Below, piece after piece: positions 158 to 17,933 of a DNA stretch of 64,000 nucleotides. The DNA lies in the IMG/VR virus record IMGVR_UViG_3300032294_001427, positions 54 to 64,053 of that record; one strand, 5' to 3'. The notes under the pieces are model-generated. The model saw only the letters and a program-made list of their open reading frames with translations. It was not told the origin of the DNA and did no database searches. The translations under genes and the position numbers were made by a program. Every line of letters starts with the position of its first letter. The first letter of the stretch is position 1. The stretch is from a virus. Its lineage: Duplodnaviria > Caudoviricetes.

Positions 158-231
158 TGGTGCTCTCACCGAGAATTGAACTCGAAATTCAGTCTTACCA
201 AGACTGTGTTATACCATTTAACTATAAGAGC
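158..231 (-). tRNA. tRNA-Thr(GGT)
   Basis: Cloverleaf; anticodon arm CAGTC-TTGGTAA-GACTG; encoded CCA. Confidence 0.92.
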
Positions 232-237
232 AAGAAT

Positions 238-317
238 TGGTGCCCTCGGTGGGATTCGAACCCACATAATCAGCACTCTCAATGCTGCATGTATACCAAT
301 CATTCCATCACAAGGGC
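238..317 (-). tRNA. tRNA-Leu(GAG), short variable arm
   Basis: CAGCA-TTGAGAG-TGCTG; T arm GTGGG-TTCGAAT-CCCAC; CCA. Confidence 0.85.
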
Positions 318-330
318 AATGATCATGAAA

Positions 331-405
331 TGGTAGCCCCAGAAGGTAACGATCCTTCACCTTTCGATTATCAGTCGAATGTACAGACCTCTATACTATA
401 GGGCT
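331..405 (-). tRNA. tRNA-Ile(GAT)
   Basis: TTCGA-CTGATAA-TCGAA; CCA. Confidence 0.9.
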
Positions 406-412
406 ATAAAAA

Positions 413-487
413 TGGCACCCCTGCCAGGACTCGAACCTGGAATACGACGTTCGTAGCATCGCGTGATTTCCATTTCACTACAGGGGC
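413..487 (-). tRNA. tRNA-Arg(ACG)
   Basis: CGATG-CTACGAA-CGTCG; canonical T loop; CCA. Confidence 0.92.
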
Positions 488-593
488 AAAAATACGTGCG
501 GTGCAAGTAACCACCGCTCCTGCATGAACGTCTCGTTATCATGCTGCGCGTCCAGTTTTATTGAGTCCACTGGCAGACTATGCATTCAAAAAT

Positions 594-698
594 AAGTGTG
601 GTGTTTTTTCTGATGGTTATCCACAGCGACATTGAAGATTCGAACTTCTCTACCCACATCTGCAGGTGTGCGACCGTTAAACTATAAGCCTACCATCA
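594..698 (-). ncRNA. Pseudoknot-closed ncRNA with tRNA-like inner domain (copy A3)
   Basis: S1 TGATGGT/ACCATCA, S2 GTGG/CCAC, A-rich loop; inner T-arm GAAG-TTCGAAT-CTTC. Confidence 0.6.
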
Positions 699-792
699 TA
701 GATTTGCTTGTTTATACAGGTTCAAATTATTCCTGTGAAGTTGTTTAGCCTGTGTTACTTGCTATCACAGGTTTCTAGAAACTAGAAAAAAT

Positions 793-903
793 AAGTGCGG
801 TTTTTTTACGATGGTTATCCGCTGAACACATTGGAATCAAACCATTTTCTTCCACGTACATGACGCGGCGTGCTCTCATTACACTATGTGTTTCTCTCCA
901 TCA
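793..903 (-). ncRNA. Pseudoknot-closed ncRNA with tRNA-like inner domain (copy A2)
   Basis: S1 GATGG/CCATC, S2 GCGG/CCGC, A-rich loop; inner cloverleaf closed by AACACA/TGTGTT. Confidence 0.6.
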
Positions 904-912
904 TCAAAATGG

Positions 913-989
913 TTGACGGTTTTTGCTGTGGCAGGTTTTCCGCAAACTAGAATAGACAAGCCCAGTACTCTCGCCTCTAGTAACTGCCA
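913..989 (-). ncRNA. Pseudoknot-closed ncRNA (copy A1)
   Basis: S1 TGGCAG/CTGCCA, S2 GCGG/CCGT, A-rich loop; inner stem ACTAGA/TCTAGT. Confidence 0.55.
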
Positions 990-1079
990 GTTTGCTTGTT
1001 TTACAACGTCATAACCATTCGTTGTTGCTCGTCACCAGACTCACTGATCAGGTGTGCGGAATCGAACCACAGAGCAAAT

Positions 1080-1155
1080 TGGTGCCAACTGCAGGTTTCG
1101 AACCTGCCCTTCATGCTCTTCAGGCATGCACTTCCACCAGGTTAGTTTAGTTGGC
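1080..1155 (-). tRNA. tRNA-Phe(GAA)
   Basis: CATGC-CTGAAGA-GCATG; CCA. Confidence 0.92.
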
Positions 1156-1159
1156 GAAT

Positions 1160-1234
1160 TGGAGTTACGGACAGGATTTGAACCTGCATAAAAGAATTTT
1201 GCAGACTCTTGCCTAACCTTTCGGCCACCGTAAC
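1160..1234 (-). tRNA. tRNA-Cys(GCA)
   Basis: AGAGT-CTGCAAA-ATTCT; U73 plus CCA. Confidence 0.92.
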
Positions 1235-1243
1235 AAACAAGAA

Positions 1244-1356
1244 GAAACACACTCTGCCCACCATGGGCTTTTCCACCGCGCTGGCTATTGCTGCTTCGTC
1301 GTGTAGTCCCAGTTTGCCAACCGCTCAAGGCTAACGACCAATGGCGAGTGTGTTTC
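1244..1356 (-). ncRNA. Structured ncRNA closed by GAAACACACTC/GAGTGTGTTTC
   Basis: 11-bp perfect terminal stem between two tRNAs; related stem at 6174-6251. Confidence 0.55.
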
Positions 1357-1361
1357 AAAAA

Positions 1362-1437
1362 TGGTAGCAACGATTGGACTCGAACCAATGATAAACTCCG
1401 TATGAAGGAGGTGCATTTGCCGCTATGCTACGTTGCT
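1362..1437 (-). tRNA. tRNA with CAT anticodon (Met or Ile2)
   Basis: CTCC-TTCATAC-GGAG; CCA. Confidence 0.85.
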
Positions 1438-1438
1438 A

Positions 1439-1515
1439 TGGGGGGTCGGCTGGGATTCGAACCCAGATATGCAAGGATCACAACCTTGGGACTTGTCCAG
1501 TTAGTCAACCGACCC
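1439..1515 (-). tRNA. tRNA-His(GTG)
   Basis: CAAGG-TTGTGAT-CCTTG; C73 plus CCA. Confidence 0.9.
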
Positions 1516-1522
1516 ATAAAGT

Positions 1523-1595
1523 GCTCGGGATCAAGGACTCGAACCTCGACTATCTGGTTCAGAGCCAGACGATCTACCATTAATCTAATCCCGAA
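1523..1595 (-). tRNA. tRNA-Gln(CTG), CCA not encoded
   Basis: TCTGG-CTCTGAA-CCAGA; canonical D and T arms. Confidence 0.85.
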
Positions 1596-1597
1596 TA

Positions 1598-1605
1598 TAT
1601 AAATA
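1598..1605 (+). promoter_or_regulatory. T4-type late promoter TATAAATA
   Basis: Exact T4 gp55 consensus 26 nt upstream of the ORF at 1632. Confidence 0.7.
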
Positions 1606-1631
1606 TACATATAAACTTTTAGGTATCATCA

Positions 1632-2201
1632 ATGATTACATTCAAAGAATTTATTCTTGAAGCGCAAGAACACACCAGCGCGGACACTTCACTCAATCAG
1701 ATCTCTGCTGGTCTAAAACATGCTGTTGCCAAAGGATTAATTACACCGAAAACCATCAATACAGATGTTGGTGGTGGAAGATATGATGTTGGCAAAGAGC
1801 ACGTTGAAGGATCCGTAAAAGGTGCAACGCTGCACATTTATGATCCTTACAATAGATCGTCTGATCACAATGAAAAGGTACAATCTATTGCTGGTGGCAA
1901 GTCCAATTACGTTGGACTCCACAATGTGTTGAATGTAATCAAAGAACCCGAAGCAAGATTAGATGCTCTAAGAATAGTCAAATCTTTCATGGGTAAAAAT
2001 GGGACTGCACACATTACAGTCCATGAAGGCGACAAGACGGGTGATGCCCGAATGTCTAAATCTGATCGCGGAAGAGGATCATCTTGGCAGAATCATCTAC
2101 CAACTGCATCCTATGTTCCAGAAGTCTCAGCAGTATTTCCAGAAAAAGAAGGCTTCAGCGTTAATAGAAAGGGTAAGCACATTCTAGTCACTAGAATGTG
2201 A
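1632..2201 (+). CDS. Class I SAM-dependent methyltransferase with capsid-targeting-like N-terminus
   Basis: DVGGGRYD motif I, YDPY, NVLNVI; N-terminus MITFKEFILE. Confidence 0.7.
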   Translation: MITFKEFILEAQEHTSADTSLNQISAGLKHAVAKGLITPKTINTDVGGGRYDVGKEHVEGSVKGATLHIYDPYNRSSDHNEKVQSIAGGKSNYVGLHNVLNVIKEPEARLDALRIVKSFMGKNGTAHITVHEGDKTGDARMSKSDRGRGSSWQNHLPTASYVPEVSAVFPEKEGFSVNRKGKHILVTRM

Positions 2202-2203
2202 AA

Positions 2204-2704
2204 TCATTTTTCCCAAACTTTCGTGAATTCTTTTGGGATTTTATCCAGTTCTATCATAGAAATTAGATCCTTTCTTCCGTTCCTGCGGTAGAGTTTGTAT
2301 AGACAATGTTTTGCCGAATATGCAAACTCTCGCTCGACATTGATCTCGCAGTATGTCGCAAGACTCTTTCGATGGACGACGTAGAATGAATTTACAGTTT
2401 CAAACACAATGAAATCTGCGGATCCATAGAGCCAACCTTTATTTCCTTTGACATTTTTGAATTCGACAAAAACATATTTGTCTTGACTGGCACTGTCTTC
2501 GCGACTGAGTTTCTTCATCGCTTTGACATCAAATGAAAATGACTTGCCGTCTTTTCTCAAATGCACATCGATATGATTGTGTATGTTTTCATTCTGCGAC
2601 GATTCTATCGGATTGAACCCGCGTTTGAATGCAACCGCCATGAAATCATCTTCTGCTTTTTTTCCAGTTTCAATTTCATTTTGATATTTCATACAATCAA
2701 TCAC
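2204..2704 (-). CDS. PD-(D/E)XK family nuclease
   Basis: E...HID...FDVK motif and GWLYGSAD. Confidence 0.65.
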   Translation of the reverse strand: MIDCMKYQNEIETGKKAEDDFMAVAFKRGFNPIESSQNENIHNHIDVHLRKDGKSFSFDVKAMKKLSREDSASQDKYVFVEFKNVKGNKGWLYGSADFIVFETVNSFYVVHRKSLATYCEINVEREFAYSAKHCLYKLYRRNGRKDLISMIELDKIPKEFTKVWEK

Positions 2705-2716
2705 TCCGAATATAAA

Positions 2717-2791
2717 TGGCTCTCCCGCTTCGGTTCGAACGAAGATTCAGTGTTCCAAAGACACTTGTCCTACCAGTTAGACGACAGGAGA
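2717..2791 (-). tRNA. tRNA-Gln(TTG)
   Basis: AGTGT-CTTTGGA-ACACT; CCA. Confidence 0.88.
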
Positions 2792-2796
2792 ATTTA

Positions 2797-3028
2797 AGAT
2801 GCCAGCCGTCACGACTTTCTGCTGGACTCCCCGCGAAAATGCCTCTAGGCATCTTACCGTACCATCCGATGTGTGCGGGATAAAAATTAGTTGCTTCCTC
2901 TCTGCGGCGGTCACTCGTACCGCATCACGACCAAAGAGGATTGTCGTATTGCCAACGCCATTTGCACCAAATGGTAAGGTCCTAATAGGAATTACCTATC
3001 TTCTCATCCTCTGGACCAGAGTAGGGAG
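2797..3028 (-). ncRNA. Structured non-coding region (one or two ncRNAs)
   Basis: Multiple stems (AAGATGCC/GGCATCTT, TCCTCT/AGAGGA, CCATTTG/CAAATGG); no credible ORF. Confidence 0.45.
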
Positions 3029-3031
3029 TAA

Positions 3032-3694
3032 TTAGCCCCCACGCCTTTTGGTTGCTTCTCTTTTTAGTGCTGCAACCCTAATTTTTTCACTTGTCTCAGG
3101 AGATACTCCTTTTTTACCTTTATTCCAAGGAATATTCCCTTTCATCGAAAGACTTATTTTTGTCTTTCTTGATTCAGAAACAGGCGGTAGCGGTCTTTCT
3201 TCGTTTTTCTTTTTGACGCCTTCTGATATTTTACGCCTATGTTCTTCTGAAAGAGGGCTTCGTTTTTTTCCAGAAAGAGCCAAACTCACACGAGGATTTT
3301 TCTTTCCTTTTGCGAGAGAACTTCTTCCTTTAAGCGGAGAAGGTTTCCCCTTTTTTGATTCGCTGATTTTGGATCTGGTTTCTTCGGAACATTCTGTTAA
3401 GTAAAACTCTTTGCCTCCGCGACCTCTATTAATCCATTTATCATTATGAACACAATTTAGCCTTCTCAATACTTTATCTTCATACAATACAGCCTTCTCA
3501 ATTGAGGAAAAACTTTTTCTGACTTGTATTATATCTGGTTCTCCATGAAGTTTTCTAAATTCTTTAACATACTCTGACGAACTAAAGTATGTGACCCATA
3601 ATTCATCAGGATGACATGCATCGGCAAATCGAACACCATAGTACCAACGATTTAATTTGGTCCAGCCTATTAAGTATGTATATGGAGTTCTCAT
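3032..3694 (-). CDS. Free-standing homing endonuclease (GIY-YIG-like N-terminus, NUMOD3 repeats)
   Basis: PYTYLIG..WYYGVR; repeats SEETRSKISES, SEEHRRKISE, PWNKGK. Confidence 0.85.
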   Translation of the reverse strand: MRTPYTYLIGWTKLNRWYYGVRFADACHPDELWVTYFSSSEYVKEFRKLHGEPDIIQVRKSFSSIEKAVLYEDKVLRRLNCVHNDKWINRGRGGKEFYLTECSEETRSKISESKKGKPSPLKGRSSLAKGKKNPRVSLALSGKKRSPLSEEHRRKISEGVKKKNEERPLPPVSESRKTKISLSMKGNIPWNKGKKGVSPETSEKIRVAALKREATKRRGG

Positions 3695-3701
3695 AATGTA
3701 T

Positions 3702-3709
3702 TATTTATA
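3702..3709 (-). promoter_or_regulatory. T4-type late promoter TATAAATA
   Basis: Exact consensus just upstream of the endonuclease start. Confidence 0.7.
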
Positions 3710-3713
3710 CCAA

Positions 3714-3968
3714 ACTTGCGCTGGTCTTCTCATCGTCTGGGTAGACTAGCCATTGACTAGATGGCACGCAAGTCAGGCTGCAGCCACTGAAGACTATGCA
3801 TTTAACTCGGACTGTCTTTTCGCGATTTTATTCCGAGCACCCAATAAGGTTTGCTGTTTGCACTATCTGCTGCGTCTCACCTTCAGGTGTCTAGAACTGA
3901 AGTTTTCTATTGGCGCAGTTAGTCAGGCATCTAAGATCTGTACTAGCCCATCGCTTGCAAACAACAAA
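3714..3968 (-). ncRNA. Structured non-coding region (several domains)
   Basis: TTTGTTGTTTGCA/TGCAAACAGCAAA, CTCGGA/TCCGAG and CTTGCG/CGCAAG stems. Confidence 0.45.
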
Positions 3969-3970
3969 TT

Positions 3971-4048
3971 TGGTGGAGATAGTCGGATTCGAACCGACCT
4001 GTGTCCTGCGTGCAAGGCAGGTGCTCACCCCTAGCAAGCCCTATCCCC
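3971..4048 (-). tRNA. tRNA-Ala(TGC)
   Basis: CCTGC-CTTGCAC-GCAGG; G3-U70; CCA. Confidence 0.92.
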
Positions 4049-4055
4049 AAAAAAT

Positions 4056-4130
4056 TGGCTGGCGCGGGTGGGATCGAACCACCGACAGGTTGATTAACAG
4101 TCAACTGATCTACCGCTGATCTACACGCCA
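4056..4130 (-). tRNA. tRNA-Asn(GTT)
   Basis: GTTGA-CTGTTAA-TCAAC; CCA. Confidence 0.93.
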
Positions 4131-4265
4131 AAAATTGATATGGTTTTGTCGAGGACGCTTACACACGACCGTATACAGCCGTTTTCAGAATTGTCTAACC
4201 TCAACACCTCTTCTATGTAGCATGCCACATAGAAGCCTCACGAGAGTACACCATAAGGTCGCTCG

Positions 4266-4314
4266 CTGTCTGACGTTGTTATACGTTTCGTCCCTACGGA
4301 CTCATCAGAGACAG
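4266..4314 (-). ncRNA. Type I hammerhead ribozyme
   Basis: CTGTCT-CTGATGA-GTCC(GTAG)GGAC-GAAA-CGT(ATAACA)ACG-TC|AGACAG: full core, three stems, GUC cleavage triplet. Confidence 0.9.
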
Positions 4315-4317
4315 AAT

Positions 4318-4391
4318 TGGCTTCCCACTACGGTACTGCCCCGCATTCTTCAGTTTTGGAGACTGATACATCACTTTAATGCTTGTGGGAA
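4318..4391 (-). tRNA. tRNA-Trp(CCA), atypical T loop
   Basis: TCAGT-CTCCAAA-ACTGA; T loop GGCAGTA; CCA. Confidence 0.8.
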
Positions 4392-4415
4392 ATTATTTTC
4401 TTCCTATTAATTAGT

Positions 4416-4519
4416 GGATTCGGGTTGGATTCGAACCAACACAGGTGCAACTTTCATAGTGTGGCCACACTGTTTAGAAAGAGGGGCTAGCCACTTGCCC
4501 ATTACGCACATCCGACTCC
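4416..4519 (-). ncRNA. tRNA-like RNA with expanded central domain
   Basis: Acceptor-like GGAGTCGG/CCGAATCC; T arm GTTGG-TTCGAAT-CCAAC; no normal anticodon arm. Confidence 0.5.
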
Positions 4520-4528
4520 GTAGATAGA

Positions 4529-4701
4529 TTTGTGAGTGTGACGCCTCCCTCATTCGTCACCATTTTACCCATGAAACAAGGCATGCTGGGTTAGAGGTAC
4601 ATAGTGATAGCGGGTACTTGTCAGTTGCCATACTGTCGGACTCGAACCGTTGACTCACGCAGTTTTCGAGGCTGCGTTTTCGCTGCATCTATACTCACAA
4701 A
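4529..4701 (-). ncRNA. Structured ncRNA of about 170 nt with a T-arm-like hairpin
   Basis: Terminal stem TTTGTGAGTAT/ACACTCACAAA; CGG-TTCGAGT-CCG. Confidence 0.5.
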
Positions 4702-4704
4702 ACT

Positions 4705-4780
4705 TGGCGACCGTGGAAGGAATCGAACCAACCGCATTCTGATAAACGATCAGACTCCACCACCAGATGGATTCACAGTC
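4705..4780 (-). tRNA. Atypical tRNA (loop TCGTTTA, nominal GTT/Asn)
   Basis: Cloverleaf with CCA but C33 and U37 and a mismatched T stem. Confidence 0.55.
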
Positions 4781-4791
4781 AAATTAAAAAT

Positions 4792-4867
4792 TGGTGGAAT
4801 GATTGGTCAGCAACAACTAATGCCCTCACGGGTGCTCCGCTTACGCTCTTATTGCTATCGACATCCC
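4792..4867 (-). ncRNA. CCA-ended tRNA-like RNA with Ala-type acceptor
   Basis: GGGATG/CATTCC-ACCA; G3-U70; degenerate arms. Confidence 0.4.
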
Positions 4868-4875
4868 ATTGAATT

Positions 4876-4958
4876 TGGCGTCCCGCACGGGGAATTGAAC
4901 CCCTGAACTAGTATTGCACTGCCAGCGGCAGCAGGTGTACCGTCACGCTCCTTGGGAC
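4876..4958 (-). ncRNA. CCA-ended tRNA-like RNA lacking an anticodon loop
   Basis: GTCCC/GGGAC-GCCA; T arm GGGG-TTCAATT-CCCC; CTGCC-GCT-GGCAG 3-nt loop. Confidence 0.5.
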
Positions 4959-4968
4959 ATTAATCGCG

Positions 4969-5028
4969 TCCTAGAATAGCGGAGTCGAACCGCCTTCGGT
5001 GTGTACACCTATTGAGCCGCAACTAGGA
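4969..5028 (-). ncRNA. Mini tRNA-like element
   Basis: TCCTAG/CTAGGA stem plus GCGG-TTCGACT-CCGC. Confidence 0.4.
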
Positions 5029-5032
5029 AAAT

Positions 5033-5107
5033 TGGTAGGTGTGGAGAATTTCGAAATCTCGACTTCCTGGTTAAAAGCCAGTTACTCTGCCTCTGAGTTA
5101 CACACCC
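5033..5107 (-). tRNA. tRNA-Lys(TTT)
   Basis: CTGG-CTTTTAA-CCAG; CCA. Confidence 0.9.
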
Positions 5108-5118
5108 AAAAATTAGAT

Positions 5119-5246
5119 CGAGTGCACTGGAGTCGAACCAGTATCTTTTAGAGCGAGGTGTTCCGTTGCAACAGAATAGACCCTTGCACTAAACGCATGT
5201 CCGCCCTCTTACTGGCCAGATCAAGGGAACGCTCATGCTGACACTC
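5119..5246 (-). ncRNA. tRNA-like RNA of about 128 nt with expanded interior
   Basis: GAGTGT/GCACTC acceptor-like stem; ACTGG-TTCGACT-CCAGT. Confidence 0.5.
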
Positions 5247-5251
5247 AAAAT

Positions 5252-5327
5252 TGGTAGCGGATGTTGGAATCGAACCAACCTGAACAGGCTTATGAGACCT
5301 ATGAGCGCACCAGCACTCTTACCCGCA
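5252..5327 (-). tRNA. tRNA-Met(CAT), initiator-like
   Basis: TAGGT-CTCATAA-GCCTG; GCGG acceptor resembling fMet; CCA. Confidence 0.85.
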
Positions 5328-5333
5328 ATAATA

Positions 5334-5409
5334 TGGTGGGTCTAACAGGATTCGAACCTGTATCAAACTGGTTAAGAGCCAGATATAATTGCCGTTATAC
5401 GATAGACCC
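5334..5409 (-). tRNA. tRNA-Lys(CTT)
   Basis: CTGG-CTCTTAA-CCAG; CCA. Confidence 0.9.
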
Positions 5410-5421
5410 GTAATAAAATTG

Positions 5422-5580
5422 TTATATGACACCACTTGTTTTGGAGGGCAAGTGATGTCATAGTGTCGCCACTGTTACACCTGTATTTCTCATGCCACTA
5501 TTGCAGACATGCAGTTCCTTGATTACCAAGCCACCAGTTCAGGGAGGCGACACCTCCACCCATCAATTCTAATCATATAA
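5422..5580 (-). ncRNA. Candidate structured ncRNA
   Basis: Terminal TTATATGA/TCATATAA stem, internal hairpins, between tRNAs. Confidence 0.4.
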
Positions 5581-5594
5581 TTCAATGTTAAACT

Positions 5595-5669
5595 TGGCGT
5601 TCCCTACGGAATTCGAATCCGTATACTTGCATTGAAAGTGCAATATCCTAACCGTTAGATGAAGGGAAC
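5595..5669 (-). tRNA. tRNA-Glu(TTC)
   Basis: TTGCA-CTTTCAA-TGCAA; CCA. Confidence 0.92.
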
Positions 5670-5861
5670 ATAAAATTGAGCGACGGAGCGCGGCACGCTC
5701 CAAGACACTTTCTACAGCAGTCTCTCCGTCTGTGTGCCATTGGCACGATCACCGAGCCGCAACTTAACAACGATACATCAAATAATTGCTGGTTACTAAT
5801 CCAGCGTCACATTATGCTTCGGGGTGACAGTCTCCGCTGTTACGAAGTTCAGGTAACAGTC

Positions 5862-5972
5862 TGCATAAGAATGTACTGTGCAGCGTTTGCGAGGCGCATC
5901 AGTAATATGTCCCTGTTGATGTATCGGTAGACGAACATATTACGTCATTGTTACACAGTACATTCTTATGCA
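5862..5972 (-). ncRNA. ncRNA closed by a 19-bp perfect stem
   Basis: TGCATAAGAATGTACTGTG / CACAGTACATTCTTATGCA; inner GTAATATGT/ACATATTAC stem. Confidence 0.55.
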
Positions 5973-5984
5973 TCATGTTAAAAT

Positions 5985-6064
5985 TGGCGACCCTTATGGG
6001 TAACGATCCCATCTGAATATCTCGCGTGACAGGCGAGCGACCACACCATGCAGTCCCAAGAGCC
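5985..6064 (-). tRNA. tRNA-Asp(GTC)
   Basis: CTCGC-CTGTCAC-GCGAG; CCA. Confidence 0.9.
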
Positions 6065-6078
6065 ATGTTTTTAAAAAT

Positions 6079-6164
6079 TGGTGGGAAAGGAAGGATTCGA
6101 ACCTACTCAGCAAAAAGCGCCAGATTTACAGTCTGGTGTGACTCTCCAACTTCACCGCTTGCCC
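6079..6164 (-). tRNA. tRNA-Tyr(GTA)
   Basis: CCAGA-CTGTAAA-TCTGG; long variable arm; CCA. Confidence 0.92.
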
Positions 6165-6248
6165 ATATTGCAACCATATTGAAACACACTATTTTAAGGC
6201 TCACTCCATAACCCGTTGTATGCACCAGTGAGATAATGTGTTTCAATA

Positions 6249-6323
6249 TGGTGCCTCCACTCGGAATCGAACTGAGTTCTCAGGCTTACAAAACCCGTGC
6301 ATCACCATTTATGCTTTAGAGGC
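6249..6323 (-). tRNA. tRNA-Thr(TGT)
   Basis: CGGGT-TTTGTAA-GCCTG; CCA. Confidence 0.9.
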
Positions 6324-16910: not shown

Positions 16911-17933
16911 TCATCCACCCGTCTTCAGCAGCCACCGATTGCTGATGCTCTTGAAAGACGCACCGCCATCATTACGCTTAAACACCAATCCCTCGCGTTC
17001 AACATTATTGTTCAGTCTGCTCTTATCTTCAGCCCACGACAACACGGTAGCAACATCAAATGCACCCTTGAGATCTTGGTCGGAAGAAATGACAGGAACG
17101 TGGTTTAGACCCAATTCCTTTACAACCTGTCGGCGGCGTTCTGGCGCAAGGTATGCCCCATCAATAGCGTCGTAAATATCAAAGACAAAGAAGTCTTGGC
17201 CCTTGAGATTGTAGTGGTTCCCTTGGATACCCTCACCGATCAATTCACCCTGAATGGCAAGACCCCACATTTCGCGAGATCTCATCTTGGACTGAATCTC
17301 ATAACGGTCGGCGATCTTCCAATAGGTCACATCGGGATTATACCTCAAATCGAGATTACGGCTGCATGCATGGAGGTCGTTGTCAGCATCCAGATAGAAA
17401 GTGCAACTTGTACCATCCAATTTTTCAGTCAATTCCCATGGTGCATCGCTCTTGCTCCACTCGGCAAGTTCGTTGACAAGATTCTGTATACGTTCTTGAT
17501 CAGTCTTGCGAACAATGCTGGGAAACATGCCACAGACCTCTCCAGCCAACTGGGCAGGAATCGGTGGCTCATACTTTTGAATACCGAGCAATTCGGTGAC
17601 ATCAGAACCCTCGGTGAGAGGAAGTTCCTGTTGCCCCAAAACAGCGGTCGGAAGAAGAAGCCCTTGACTCAACTGCCCCCGCAGTCGAACGGTGCGCAGA
17701 CGCTCACCCTTGACACCATTGTATTCTCTGGGTTCACGCCCCTTACTGAGAAAGGGAGCAAGAGCATCGGGGATCCAACTGTCGATCTCGCAGTAGACGA
17801 CAAGATCGCCGACAGCATATTCGCCCTTCTTGACGACCACAGACCATCCACCAATGGTGGCACATTCAATCGCATCAGCACCCGCGATGGGGTTGATGTT
17901 ATCTATTTTCCGAATAGTAGCAAGTTTACGCAT
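16911..17933 (-). CDS. ATP-dependent RNA ligase, DRB0094/Rnl5 family with N-terminal OB domain
   Basis: TEKLDGTS motif I, QGELIG, FDI, EGLVFK, SFKSIS; N-terminal MRKLATIR..LRGQLSQGL. Confidence 0.9.
   Translation of the reverse strand: MRKLATIRKIDNINPIAGADAIECATIGGWSVVVKKGEYAVGDLVVYCEIDSWIPDALAPFLSKGREPREYNGVKGERLRTVRLRGQLSQGLLLPTAVLGQQELPLTEGSDVTELLGIQKYEPPIPAQLAGEVCGMFPSIVRKTDQERIQNLVNELAEWSKSDAPWELTEKLDGTSCTFYLDADNDLHACSRNLDLRYNPDVTYWKIADRYEIQSKMRSREMWGLAIQGELIGEGIQGNHYNLKGQDFFVFDIYDAIDGAYLAPERRRQVVKELGLNHVPVISSDQDLKGAFDVATVLSWAEDKSRLNNNVEREGLVFKRNDGGASFKSISNRWLLKTGG

Follow-up and report, generated by a model that had tools for sequence, protein, structure and literature searches.

What fills the gap of ~590 nucleotides, free of tRNA genes, that interrupts the transfer RNA (tRNA) cluster of the virus record IMGVR_UViG_3300032294_001427 (Duplodnaviria; Caudoviricetes)? 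The stretch analyzed here, referred to as the window, is 64,000 nucleotides long and represents nearly the whole of this 64,053-base IMG/VR record, the completeness of which is put at 31% by CheckV. A tRNA cluster occupies the left end of the window on the minus strand, with 18 tRNAs called by ARAGORN within 158-6323 (Rfam counts 17 in the window), and the gap is located between tRNA-Phe (1080-1155) and tRNA-Arg (413-487). It holds four consecutive minus-strand units, here called A, B, C and D. An earlier note on this DNA had described three of them (A, B and C) as repeats of one strand order with pairing stems enclosing exchangeable inserts, and all three elements with their stems were found in place. 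The explanation that we favor as a whole, with confidence evenly divided between acceptance and doubt, is that they represent small stable RNAs in which an A-rich H-type pseudoknot locks the two ends and at the same time makes up the 3' end.

The order common to A, B and C runs from the first strand of stem 1 (S1) through the insert, the first strand of stem 2 (S2), a short A-rich link (L2), the second strand of stem 1 (S1') and an A-rich loop (L3) to the second strand of stem 2 (S2'), followed by a U-run. The components are as follows.

916-989, minus strand: element A, with S1 UGGCAG (984-989), S1' CUGCCA (929-934), S2 GCGG (940-943) and S2' CCGU (916-919); the insert is a 40-nucleotide plain hairpin (944-983), L2 is AAAAC (935-939) and L3 is CAGCAAAAA (920-928).
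797-902, minus strand: element B, with S1 GAUGG (898-902), S1' CCAUC (810-814), S2 GCGG (819-822) and S2' CCGC (797-800); the insert has 75 nucleotides with a tRNA-like part at 823-893, L2 is AUAA (815-818) and L3 is GUAAAAAAA (801-809).
787-796, minus strand: tail of B, ACUUAUUUUU(U), with the same tail after C (588-596) and after the hairpin of D (488-497).
598-698, minus strand: element C, with S1 UGAUGGU (692-698), S1' ACCAUCA (611-617), S2 (U)GUGG (621-625) and S2' CCAC(A) (597-601); the insert is a degenerate tRNA-like sequence of 66 nucleotides (626-691), L2 is AUA (618-620) and L3 is GAAAAAACA (602-610).

As judged by their alignment, B and C are clearly paralogues: they align across the tRNA-like middle part and carry an almost identical 3' module and tail. 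The module common to both reads G[C/U]GGAUAACCAUC-NN-AAAAAA-CC[G/A]C, and together with the tail in full G[C/U]GGAUAACCAUC[GU/AG]AAAAAA(C)ACC[G/A]CACUUAUUUUU. The sole difference between B and C within S2 (C to U) is matched by a change in S2' (G to A). Part of this sequence recurs as a direct-repeat family, D1, in three copies (488-508, 588-608 and 787-807). Element A, separated from B by 13 nucleotides only, has in common with B and C the topology, the sequence GCGGA[A/U]AACC, the run AAAAACCG and an AAACCG motif, but differs from them by another S1 (UGGCAG/CUGCCA) and by its plain hairpin insert.

Pairing of S2 is backed by compensatory change. Among nine distinct module sequences, S2 occurs as GCGG/CCGC, GUGG/CCAC, AUGG/CCAU and GCGG/CCGU, and the four core pairs are intact in all 36 cells, with two of these pairs changed on both sides (GC in six, AU in two and GU in one; CG in six and UA in three). 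The S2 covariation score of 0.378 compares with 0.204 in shuffles and is reached by 0 of 500 of them, while sliding the S2 register leaves only 20-44% of cells paired. The outer fifth pair forms in four of the nine. Given that the sequences are few and related, we regard this S2 covariation as good evidence, short of conclusive. By contrast, S1 exists in two forms only, GAUGG/CCAUC and the A-type UGGCAG/CUGCCA, both fully complementary. The claim that the stems change in sequence while keeping their pairing therefore stands for S2, whereas for S1 it comes down to one covariation event. In every member S1 and S2 add up to ~10-12 pairs and L3 is A-rich with a length of 7-10 nucleotides. These values suit, on steric grounds, an H-type knot whose loop occupies the minor groove of S1; across members, L2 has 3-5 nucleotides. 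Distant phages show no change in the loops (AUAA and the A-run) or in CCAUC, with the outer S2 pairs covarying around them. Taken together, these observations make it probable that we are dealing with a real, selected RNA family with an S2 helix; that the full pseudoknot forms is predicted with lesser confidence, although the balance is in its favor.

Homologues were sought in other phages with the module sequence. When viral contigs were scanned for exact copies of GGATAACCATCNNAAAAAA, 13 loci came up, among which L002, L006, L013 and L014 are non-coding, RNA-rich and possess complementary S2 flanks; the same scan gave at least 120 matches each in metagenome contigs and in genome contigs, with no family member recognized by look among the matches listed for genome contigs. 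Among 255 listed matches examined over all GGATAACCATCNNAAAAAA scans, 14 showed S2 flanks that complement each other. Of these, eleven belong to the family (the two of the window, L002, L006, L013, L014, L185, L199, L211, L222 and L265), while L206, L246 and L299 look like chance despite their complementary flanks. A scan with S2 fixed and S1' free returned 27 loci, of which a single one, L407 in a record of 326 kb, was a member not seen before. Family members elsewhere sit in non-coding, tRNA-rich stretches. L013 (identical in L014 and L185), L222 and L407 all possess GAUGGU, a tRNA-like insert with the D-arm of B, the module and a U-run. The marine loci L002, L006, L199, L211 and L265 form a second type, with an identical stretch of 22 nucleotides (GGAUAACCAUCGUAAAAAAACC), S2 AUGG/CCAU, an S1 of GAUG placed 3-7 nucleotides upstream, no insert and no U-run after the module, which lies ~130 nucleotides before the end of a highly conserved RNA of ~600 nucleotides with its own terminator.

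Two further searches used a model of the module built without A (R1) and a model that includes the G012 element as a training sequence (R2). R1 scored 54.5 bits for B and 55.8 bits for C, and unit D reached 10.5 bits (E 1). When 35 related records were searched with R1, the single full-length match, a weak one in record G012 (L547, 1500-1585), proved to be a homologue of A: leader, S1 and S1' are the same as in A, S2 is UGCGG/CCGCA, and the insert stem is compensated from ACUAGA/UCUAGU in A to ACUAGC/GCUAGU. Its tail, CACUUAUUUUUUU, is of the B/C type CCGCACUUAUUUUUUU. Through this homologue A is tied to B and C and is seen to be conserved rather than accidental. With homologues in other phage contigs and a middle domain that differs between members, the description of a modular phage RNA family is borne out.

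Conservation was further assessed against the kinship of the carriers. Open reading frames (ORFs) of the window have many proteins in common with the whole records G001, G002 and G003, at 24-78% identity, so that, by this protein comparison, a single large group of freshwater phages includes the carriers of tRNA-like inserts as distant kin. These contigs (L013/L014/L185, L222 and L407) are those of jumbo phages, and the LpxH-like protein common to the group is encoded by at least 592 viral contigs. Marine G004 has one protein in common with the window (36% identity). GGAUAACCAUC and the A-run are unchanged across carriers despite this protein divergence, at which neutral DNA is saturated, and the unchanged module thus indicates purifying selection. 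Copy number is one each in G001-G005 and one to three per genome overall. Relatives were also seen in four public runs, compared as DNA contigs of which none covers 564-686; for 400-1600 no run of RNA was listed. In run X4, a freshwater metagenome, a 242-nucleotide contig is 96.7% identical to 804-1046; the differences, at 891, 896, 912, 921 and 958 with a missing base at 906, include none in a knot stem. The change at 891 keeps a pair of the B acceptor as G-U, and the change at 921 is A to G in the L3 of A. Relatives in these runs have A and B present, with the C region uncovered.

The motif is concentrated at the three elements. The three copies of GGAWAACCNNC in the 64-kb window coincide with A, B and C; 0.81 copies are expected, and 4 of 100 shuffles reach three. 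A strict descriptor (S1 of at least six Watson-Crick pairs, GC-rich 4-base-pair S2, A-rich loops) found A and C only on both strands of the window, compared with a mean of 0.3 and never more than one in 30 dinucleotide shuffles; it was written after A was known and is therefore supportive rather than an independent test. A loose descriptor (5-base-pair S1, 4-base-pair S2, A-rich loops) gave 73 raw matches in the window, so the bare topology alone means little. In minimum-free-energy folds the S1 helix is present for B and for C, and the S2 helix for L407.

Several observations weigh against the favored explanation. S1 pairing has the single covariation event mentioned above behind it, L2 is longer than the 0-1 nucleotide of classical coaxial H-type knots, the S2 of the marine type can be drawn in two registers (AUGG/CCAU or UGGAU/AUCCR), and one double change in marine L199 gives an unpaired A-A. 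Fold z-scores of +0.10 for A, +0.26 for B and +0.68 for C denote structures no more stable than shuffles; L013 and L222 likewise fall within +0.10 to +0.68, and L407 has -1.94. The minimum-free-energy fold of A prefers a competing 9-base-pair helix that uses parts of S1 and S2. Element A was not found by R1 at E<=10 (R2 gives it 36.0 bits), and its tie to B and C consists of topology, the GCGGAWAACC and AAACCG motifs, the G012 tail and the descriptor written after A was known. The covariance-model search of phage records proposed in the earlier note did find B and C and lead to G012, but the family is rare: R2 over 50 related records matches only G012, one of its own training sequences, and four related records of 59-80% completeness have no R2 match. 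Weak model matches in G007, G026, G037 and G041 were set aside as they look coding or chance. Furthermore, parts of the region are missing or exchanged in relatives from the public runs, one of which replaces the stretch between 443 and 1450, and this loss or replacement together with the rarity indicates that the family is dispensable. Finally, U-runs also follow ordinary tRNAs of this cluster and are therefore no proof of termination.

The middle domain is the part that varies: B, C, L013, L222 and L407 have a tRNA-like one, A and G012 a hairpin of 32-40 nucleotides, and the marine type no more than 3-7 nucleotides. The B insert (823-893) scores 23.0 bits (E 0.038) against the Rfam tRNA family RF00005, below its gathering score of 29, and the L222 insert falls below the same score with 24.6 bits. 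ARAGORN identifies the L407 insert as tRNA-Lys(UUU) and calls no tRNA at A, B or C. Calling two of the window's inserts tRNA-like was thus right for B, as a weak tRNA, and overstated for C, for which an Rfam search of 116 nucleotides (590-705) gave no tRNA match at E<=10. In the C insert a canonical T-arm (GAAG-UUCGAAU-CUUC) is nevertheless retained, together with a D-region that has its homologues in B and L013.

Comparison among the five tRNA-like inserts separates a constant part from changing ones. The D-arm hardly varies, and the T-stems, although unlike in sequence, pair by eye (CAGG/CCUG, GAAGG/CCUUC and GAAG/CUUC). An acceptor of six base pairs is present in L407 and B, and acceptor pairing is lost in L013, L222 and C. 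The equivalents of the anticodon arm are GC-rich stems with loops of 6-12 nucleotides that have nothing in common: UCAUGUA with C33 in B, six nucleotides in C, 11-12 nucleotides in L013, six nucleotides in L222 and AAUUUUU in L407. A 3' CCA, encoded by the true tRNAs of this phage, is absent from all elements, with the 3' side of the acceptor running into S2 (GCGG), in agreement with the proposal that a CCA end and a normal anticodon loop are both lacking. L013 and L222 are 95.6% identical over 275 nucleotides aligned by BLAST, and by eye their differences fall mostly in the anticodon-like arm. The D-loop is AAUGAGA in B and AAUGGUA in L013, and the T-loop UUUGAUU in B and UUCGAAU in L013; in an ungapped, alignment-dependent comparison these changes turn the G19-C56 elbow pair into A-U, a suggestive observation. 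The conserved part of the putative mimic is accordingly the elbow, neither the acceptor end nor the anticodon. Given that the 'anticodon' loops are unlike each other and resemble those of no known tRNA, the case for a decoy of one specific anticodon nuclease, or for mimicry of one given tRNA, is weakened.

How the elements end and begin bears on whether they are RNAs of their own. The distance from S2' to the U-run is 0-2 nucleotides in C, L013, L407 and G012, 2-3 nucleotides in B and L222 and 6 nucleotides in A, where a weak U-run stands at 906-909; a U-run thus lies within 0-3 nucleotides of S2' in six of seven A-, B- and C-type sequences. Terminator scanning listed two sites only, D (498-517) and the tRNA-Arg end. 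Under terminator criteria B and C offer a 4-5-base-pair S2 helix with a 19-nucleotide 'loop' before the U-run, and acting as rho-independent terminators they would need a stable knot. Two further features complete the gap.

702-786, minus strand: leader of C, with two hairpins and a promoter-like arrangement of TTCACA (734-739), 17 nucleotides, TATAAA (711-716) and AAGCAAA before S1.
488-587, minus strand: unit D, consisting of hairpins of which the last is terminator-like, GCGGUG-loop-CACCGC (498-517) followed by ACGUAUUUUU.

The TATAAA of the leader ends 12 nucleotides before S1, the leader fold has a z-score of -2.34, and a contig of run X2 spans 717-774. The leader also precedes the A-type element in G012, with TCTACA replacing TTCACA, and a degenerate copy, UAAAACAAGCAAA, stands before A at 990-1003. 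TTCACA/TATAAA looks promoter-like by eye and is not among the sites listed by the promoter/terminator scan. Leader and U-runs would fit with small primary transcripts that extend from S1 to the knot. Unit D is like S2/S2' in its stem and like B in its tail, and the pseudoknot module is absent.

These same features could be read as cis-acting punctuation of the tRNA operon, a pseudoknot-assisted terminator or a signal for RNase processing or stability, with the inserts as decaying tRNA copies that have no function in trans. It is the alternative that survives best, and we consider it unlikely. It accounts for the U-run after S2', for the ordinary terminator of D with the same stem and tail, for tRNA debris nearby (a T-arm remnant at 1055-1071), for the lost acceptor pairing in C and L013, for the position of the A-type element of G012 directly behind an ORF in the manner of a terminator in a 3' untranslated region, and for the variability of the region among relatives. 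However, an S1 located 32-75 nucleotides upstream and conserved together with the insert is needless for a terminator, and the invariant AUAA, A-run and CCAUC in distant phages exceed what a terminator requires. One to three copies per genome do not make a general terminator of the phage, the marine type has no U-run after the module, and the D-arm and T-loop of the insert are kept across phages that are only distantly kin by their proteins.

The invariant loops also raise the possibility that the module is a small aptamer or protein-binding site resembling preQ1-I, in which a ligand or protein would decide on S2' pairing and thereby on termination or reshaping. The strand order of preQ1-I, the aptamer-like pattern of invariant loops with covarying outer S2 pairs and the retention of the same 22 nucleotides in freshwater and marine phages speak for such a role. 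By contrast, no riboswitch of Rfam was matched, not even by the 86-nucleotide minimal marine version (L006 615-700), which like the window region 480-1370 gave no preQ1-I match at E<=10. The leader position of preQ1-I riboswitches is not seen either: B and C precede further RNA units and tRNA-Arg, with no queuosine gene or regulated ORF downstream, and in five members loop 1 holds a domain of 66-75 nucleotides. We therefore doubt this role strongly.

Equally hard to favor is a single larger ornate RNA of the GOLLD, ROOL or marine kind spanning 488-1080, with the knots as architectural bricks. The ~590-nucleotide gap, the spacing of 13 nucleotides between A and B and the marine module embedded ~130 nucleotides before the end of a ~600-nucleotide RNA would agree with it, as would the location of GOLLD and ROOL near tRNAs in phages according to PMC5737381. 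However, Rfam searches gave no GOLLD or ROOL match at E<=10, the units are single in L013, L407 and G012, each unit ends with a U-run, and relatives with A and B have the C region uncovered, with one of them replacing 443-1450. Chance with shared ancestry, making B and C duplicated tRNA pseudogenes with hitch-hiking spacer and the stems meaningless, is disfavored and scarcely probable, since frequent 4-6-base-pair stems with A-rich spacers (the 73 raw matches above), fold energies no better than shuffles and a tiny family are opposed by compensatory S2 changes in three lineages with all core cells paired, by retention of the module in phages with common proteins only 24-78% identical, by an S1 fully exchanged yet complementary in the A type with its own homologue (G012), and by enrichment of the strict descriptor.

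The earlier note recognized no named family, and Rfam agrees, giving no match to the module or the elements. At gathering score only tRNAs were found in the window, and Rfam 15 gave no credible match at E<=10 on 480-1370, 590-705 and L006 615-700 or at E<=1 on five homologous loci. No similar DNA was detected in GenBank phages (50,697 records), where B gave chance matches only. The motif is undescribed in the literature found; a published set of 8,495 candidate RNAs from IMG/VR (PMC10690425) has supplementary lists that could hold it. Other searches brought no additional member: the leader pattern gave five loci and none new, the tRNA-Phe anchor search gave 0 loci, the protein at 1632-2201 has no relatives found, the T-loop plus GGATAACC pattern gave at least 118 loci with no family member by eye among the matches listed, and the D-arm pattern gave 28 loci, ordinary phage tRNAs except L013/L014. 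A type III antitoxin of the ToxI kind was rejected, as Tandem Repeats Finder found no tandem repeats in 400-1400 and the units are unequal (74-106 nucleotides, compared with expected repeats of ~34-45) and followed by tRNA genes instead of a toxin ORF. Self-cleaving ribozymes (hepatitis delta virus-like, pistol, twister) do not fit in strand order, and a small ORF was dismissed as short frames are not conserved.

Some features of the record and the related loci deserve description in their own right. Within the cluster, a 77-nucleotide tRNA at 241-317 (minus strand; Rfam 52.6 bits) was missed by ARAGORN, and an ORF with NUMOD3 motifs, homing-endonuclease-like, lies at 3032-3694 (minus strand). 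Just after tRNA-Phe, at 1055-1071 (minus strand), stands a lone T-arm, UGUGG-UUCGAUU-CCGCA, apparently the remnant of a tRNA gene. Between tRNA-Met and tRNA-Cys, an element of 127 nucleotides (1235-1361, minus strand) possesses a closing stem of ~13 base pairs and a fold z-score of -2.67, with 1 of 200 shuffles equally stable; in a contig of run X6, just seven other letters separate 1230 from 1362, and since this relative is without exactly 1235-1361, that segment is an optional inserted RNA module. An RNA ligase (16911-17933, minus strand; PHA02142 OB fold and RNA_ligase domain), 10 kb away, fits with a phage facing tRNA-cutting defences. The record also encodes ThyX, a class II-like ribonucleotide reductase, an LpxH-like metallophosphoesterase, a primase, an endolysin and virion proteins, and together with the RNA ligase this gene set indicates a large lytic-type phage.

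Among the related loci, the ~600-nucleotide marine non-coding RNA (L006 170-790, also in L002, L199, L211 and L265) has a promoter-like start and a terminator, and matched neither Rfam nor GenBank phages; possibly it represents a large phage RNA of a new kind. Its L265 copy has a complete tRNA-Met inserted just 5' of S1, and a manA RNA-like match at L265 1631-1806 (minus strand; 50.3 bits, cut-off 55.2) fits with a marine T4-like phage as carrier of the 600-nucleotide RNA. Another conserved structured RNA, UUGAGAGUCCGAAAGCGAGG...ACUCUCAA, of ~140-160 nucleotides and closed by GAGAGU/ACUCUC, lies directly beside pseudoknot elements in two related phages (L013 13349-13500, also L014 and L185; L547 ~1370-1480, minus strand) and is absent from the window. 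L014 contains CUGAUGAGUCCGUGAAAAUCGGACGAAAC at ~5585-5625 (minus strand), which we take to be like a hammerhead ribozyme core, with no Hammerhead family at Rfam gathering score in L014. L133, L142, L145, L149 and L154 are tRNA-like genes with a normal D-arm and an insertion of ~40 nucleotides (…GCCCCAAGCAAAGGGUUUCUUGUCCGAUAGGAUAGG…) after the anticodon-stem region, and may be intron-bearing or long-arm tRNAs.

Returning to small end-locked RNAs as the favored explanation, A, B and C would be three tandem genes of one phage family encoding structured RNAs of ~90-120 nucleotides expressed with the tRNA cluster. Each RNA would begin with S1, continue through a variable middle domain and end in S2, AUAA, S1', the A-rich loop and S2'. 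Pairing of S1 with S1' and of S2 with S2' would create an H-type pseudoknot with ~10-12 stacked pairs, with the A-rich loop predicted to lie in the minor groove of S1 by comparison with preQ1-I and luteovirus frameshift knots. As a U-run follows S2' within 0-3 nucleotides, the knot would be the 3'-terminal structure of the RNA, produced by termination or by processing, and would bind the two ends of the RNA to each other. In B, L013, L222 and L407 the middle domain would then be displayed as a stable tRNA look-alike with a D-/T-arm elbow that cannot be charged, and such members might occupy a host tRNA-binding factor, either a defence nuclease or an enzyme active in processing or modification. 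Formation of the knot, the existence of discrete stable RNAs and occupation of a tRNA factor are what we infer here, and a decoy function is offered tentatively. The invariance of loops and CCAUC across habitats suggests a sequence-specific partner or a tertiary fold rather than stability alone. More speculatively still, the GGAUAACC...A-run module could be a portable, sequence-specific end-clamp placed on tRNA mimics, hairpins and a 600-nucleotide RNA, conferring nuclease resistance and recognized by one conserved partner, with the tRNA-shaped versions and their fast-changing arm serving as decoys or sponges against tRNA-targeting defences.

Phage tRNA clusters are now known to counter tRNA-cutting host defences, and the other small RNAs of such clusters have stayed unexplained for decades. 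The motif reported here is compact and testable at the bench, with ~30 nucleotides of invariant loops and covarying stems in freshwater and marine phages and no Rfam entry. The RNAs that it seems to close differ in content, and some of them would be look-alikes of tRNA incapable of being charged. Should the knot form and the RNAs be found to accumulate, the motif would represent a new RNA-stabilizing module, a candidate class of tRNA decoys and a handle on a cellular partner; were it only a knot-assisted terminator, the design would still be unusual.

Partial likenesses to several known systems place the family. GOLLD and ROOL lie near tRNAs in phages and are structured RNAs with pseudoknots, as described in PMC5737381; the likeness consists in being phage- or prophage-borne, tRNA-adjacent and structured with pseudoknots, and the lengths differ (580-800 nucleotides versus ~100 here). 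Neither matched the window (E<=10 on 480-1370) or L002, L006, L013, L014, L199, L211, L222 and L265. In position, the elements resemble, by description only, the small non-tRNA RNAs with partial tRNA-like features that lie between phage tRNA genes. Such RNAs, namely T4 species 1 and 2 (rnaC, rnaD) and the T5 stable RNAs, are partly tRNA-like and of unknown function, and we know of no pseudoknot clamp described for them. In turnip yellow mosaic virus-type tRNA-like structures, a pseudoknot builds a terminal stack of ~12 base pairs with a free ACCA end that is aminoacylated, the tRNA arms lying 5' of the knot. Viral tRNA mimicry with a pseudoknot in the terminal helix stack would be common to both, whereas the elements here have the arms inside loop 1, no 3' CCA, a U-run after S2', a DNA genome and a bacterial host.

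YrlA possesses a tRNA-like module with a D-/T-arm elbow that is not aminoacylated, closed by a helix of the 5' and 3' parts of the RNA, and is known in phages near tRNAs. An uncharged elbow module closed in this manner is also what the elements share with bacterial Y RNA (RF02553), while YrlA differs by being without the 3' pseudoknot module. RF02553 gave no match to A, B or C, its best score in the record being 21.6 bits (cut-off 69) over the tRNA genes at 158-317, and Ro/TROVE (PF05731) is absent from the record, itself 31% complete. The preQ1-I class has the order P1, L1, P2, L2, P1', A-rich L3 and P2', and A-rich H-type knots are also found as luteovirus frameshift knots. The module resembles both in strand order, stems of 4-7 base pairs, an A-rich loop of ~9 nucleotides and conserved loops with covarying outer pairs. 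Unlike preQ1-I, most members have a loop 1 of 32-75 nucleotides and an L2 of 3-5 nucleotides, and they are set among tRNA genes. The family is thus of known sorts, a phage tRNA-like small RNA joined to an A-rich H-type pseudoknot.

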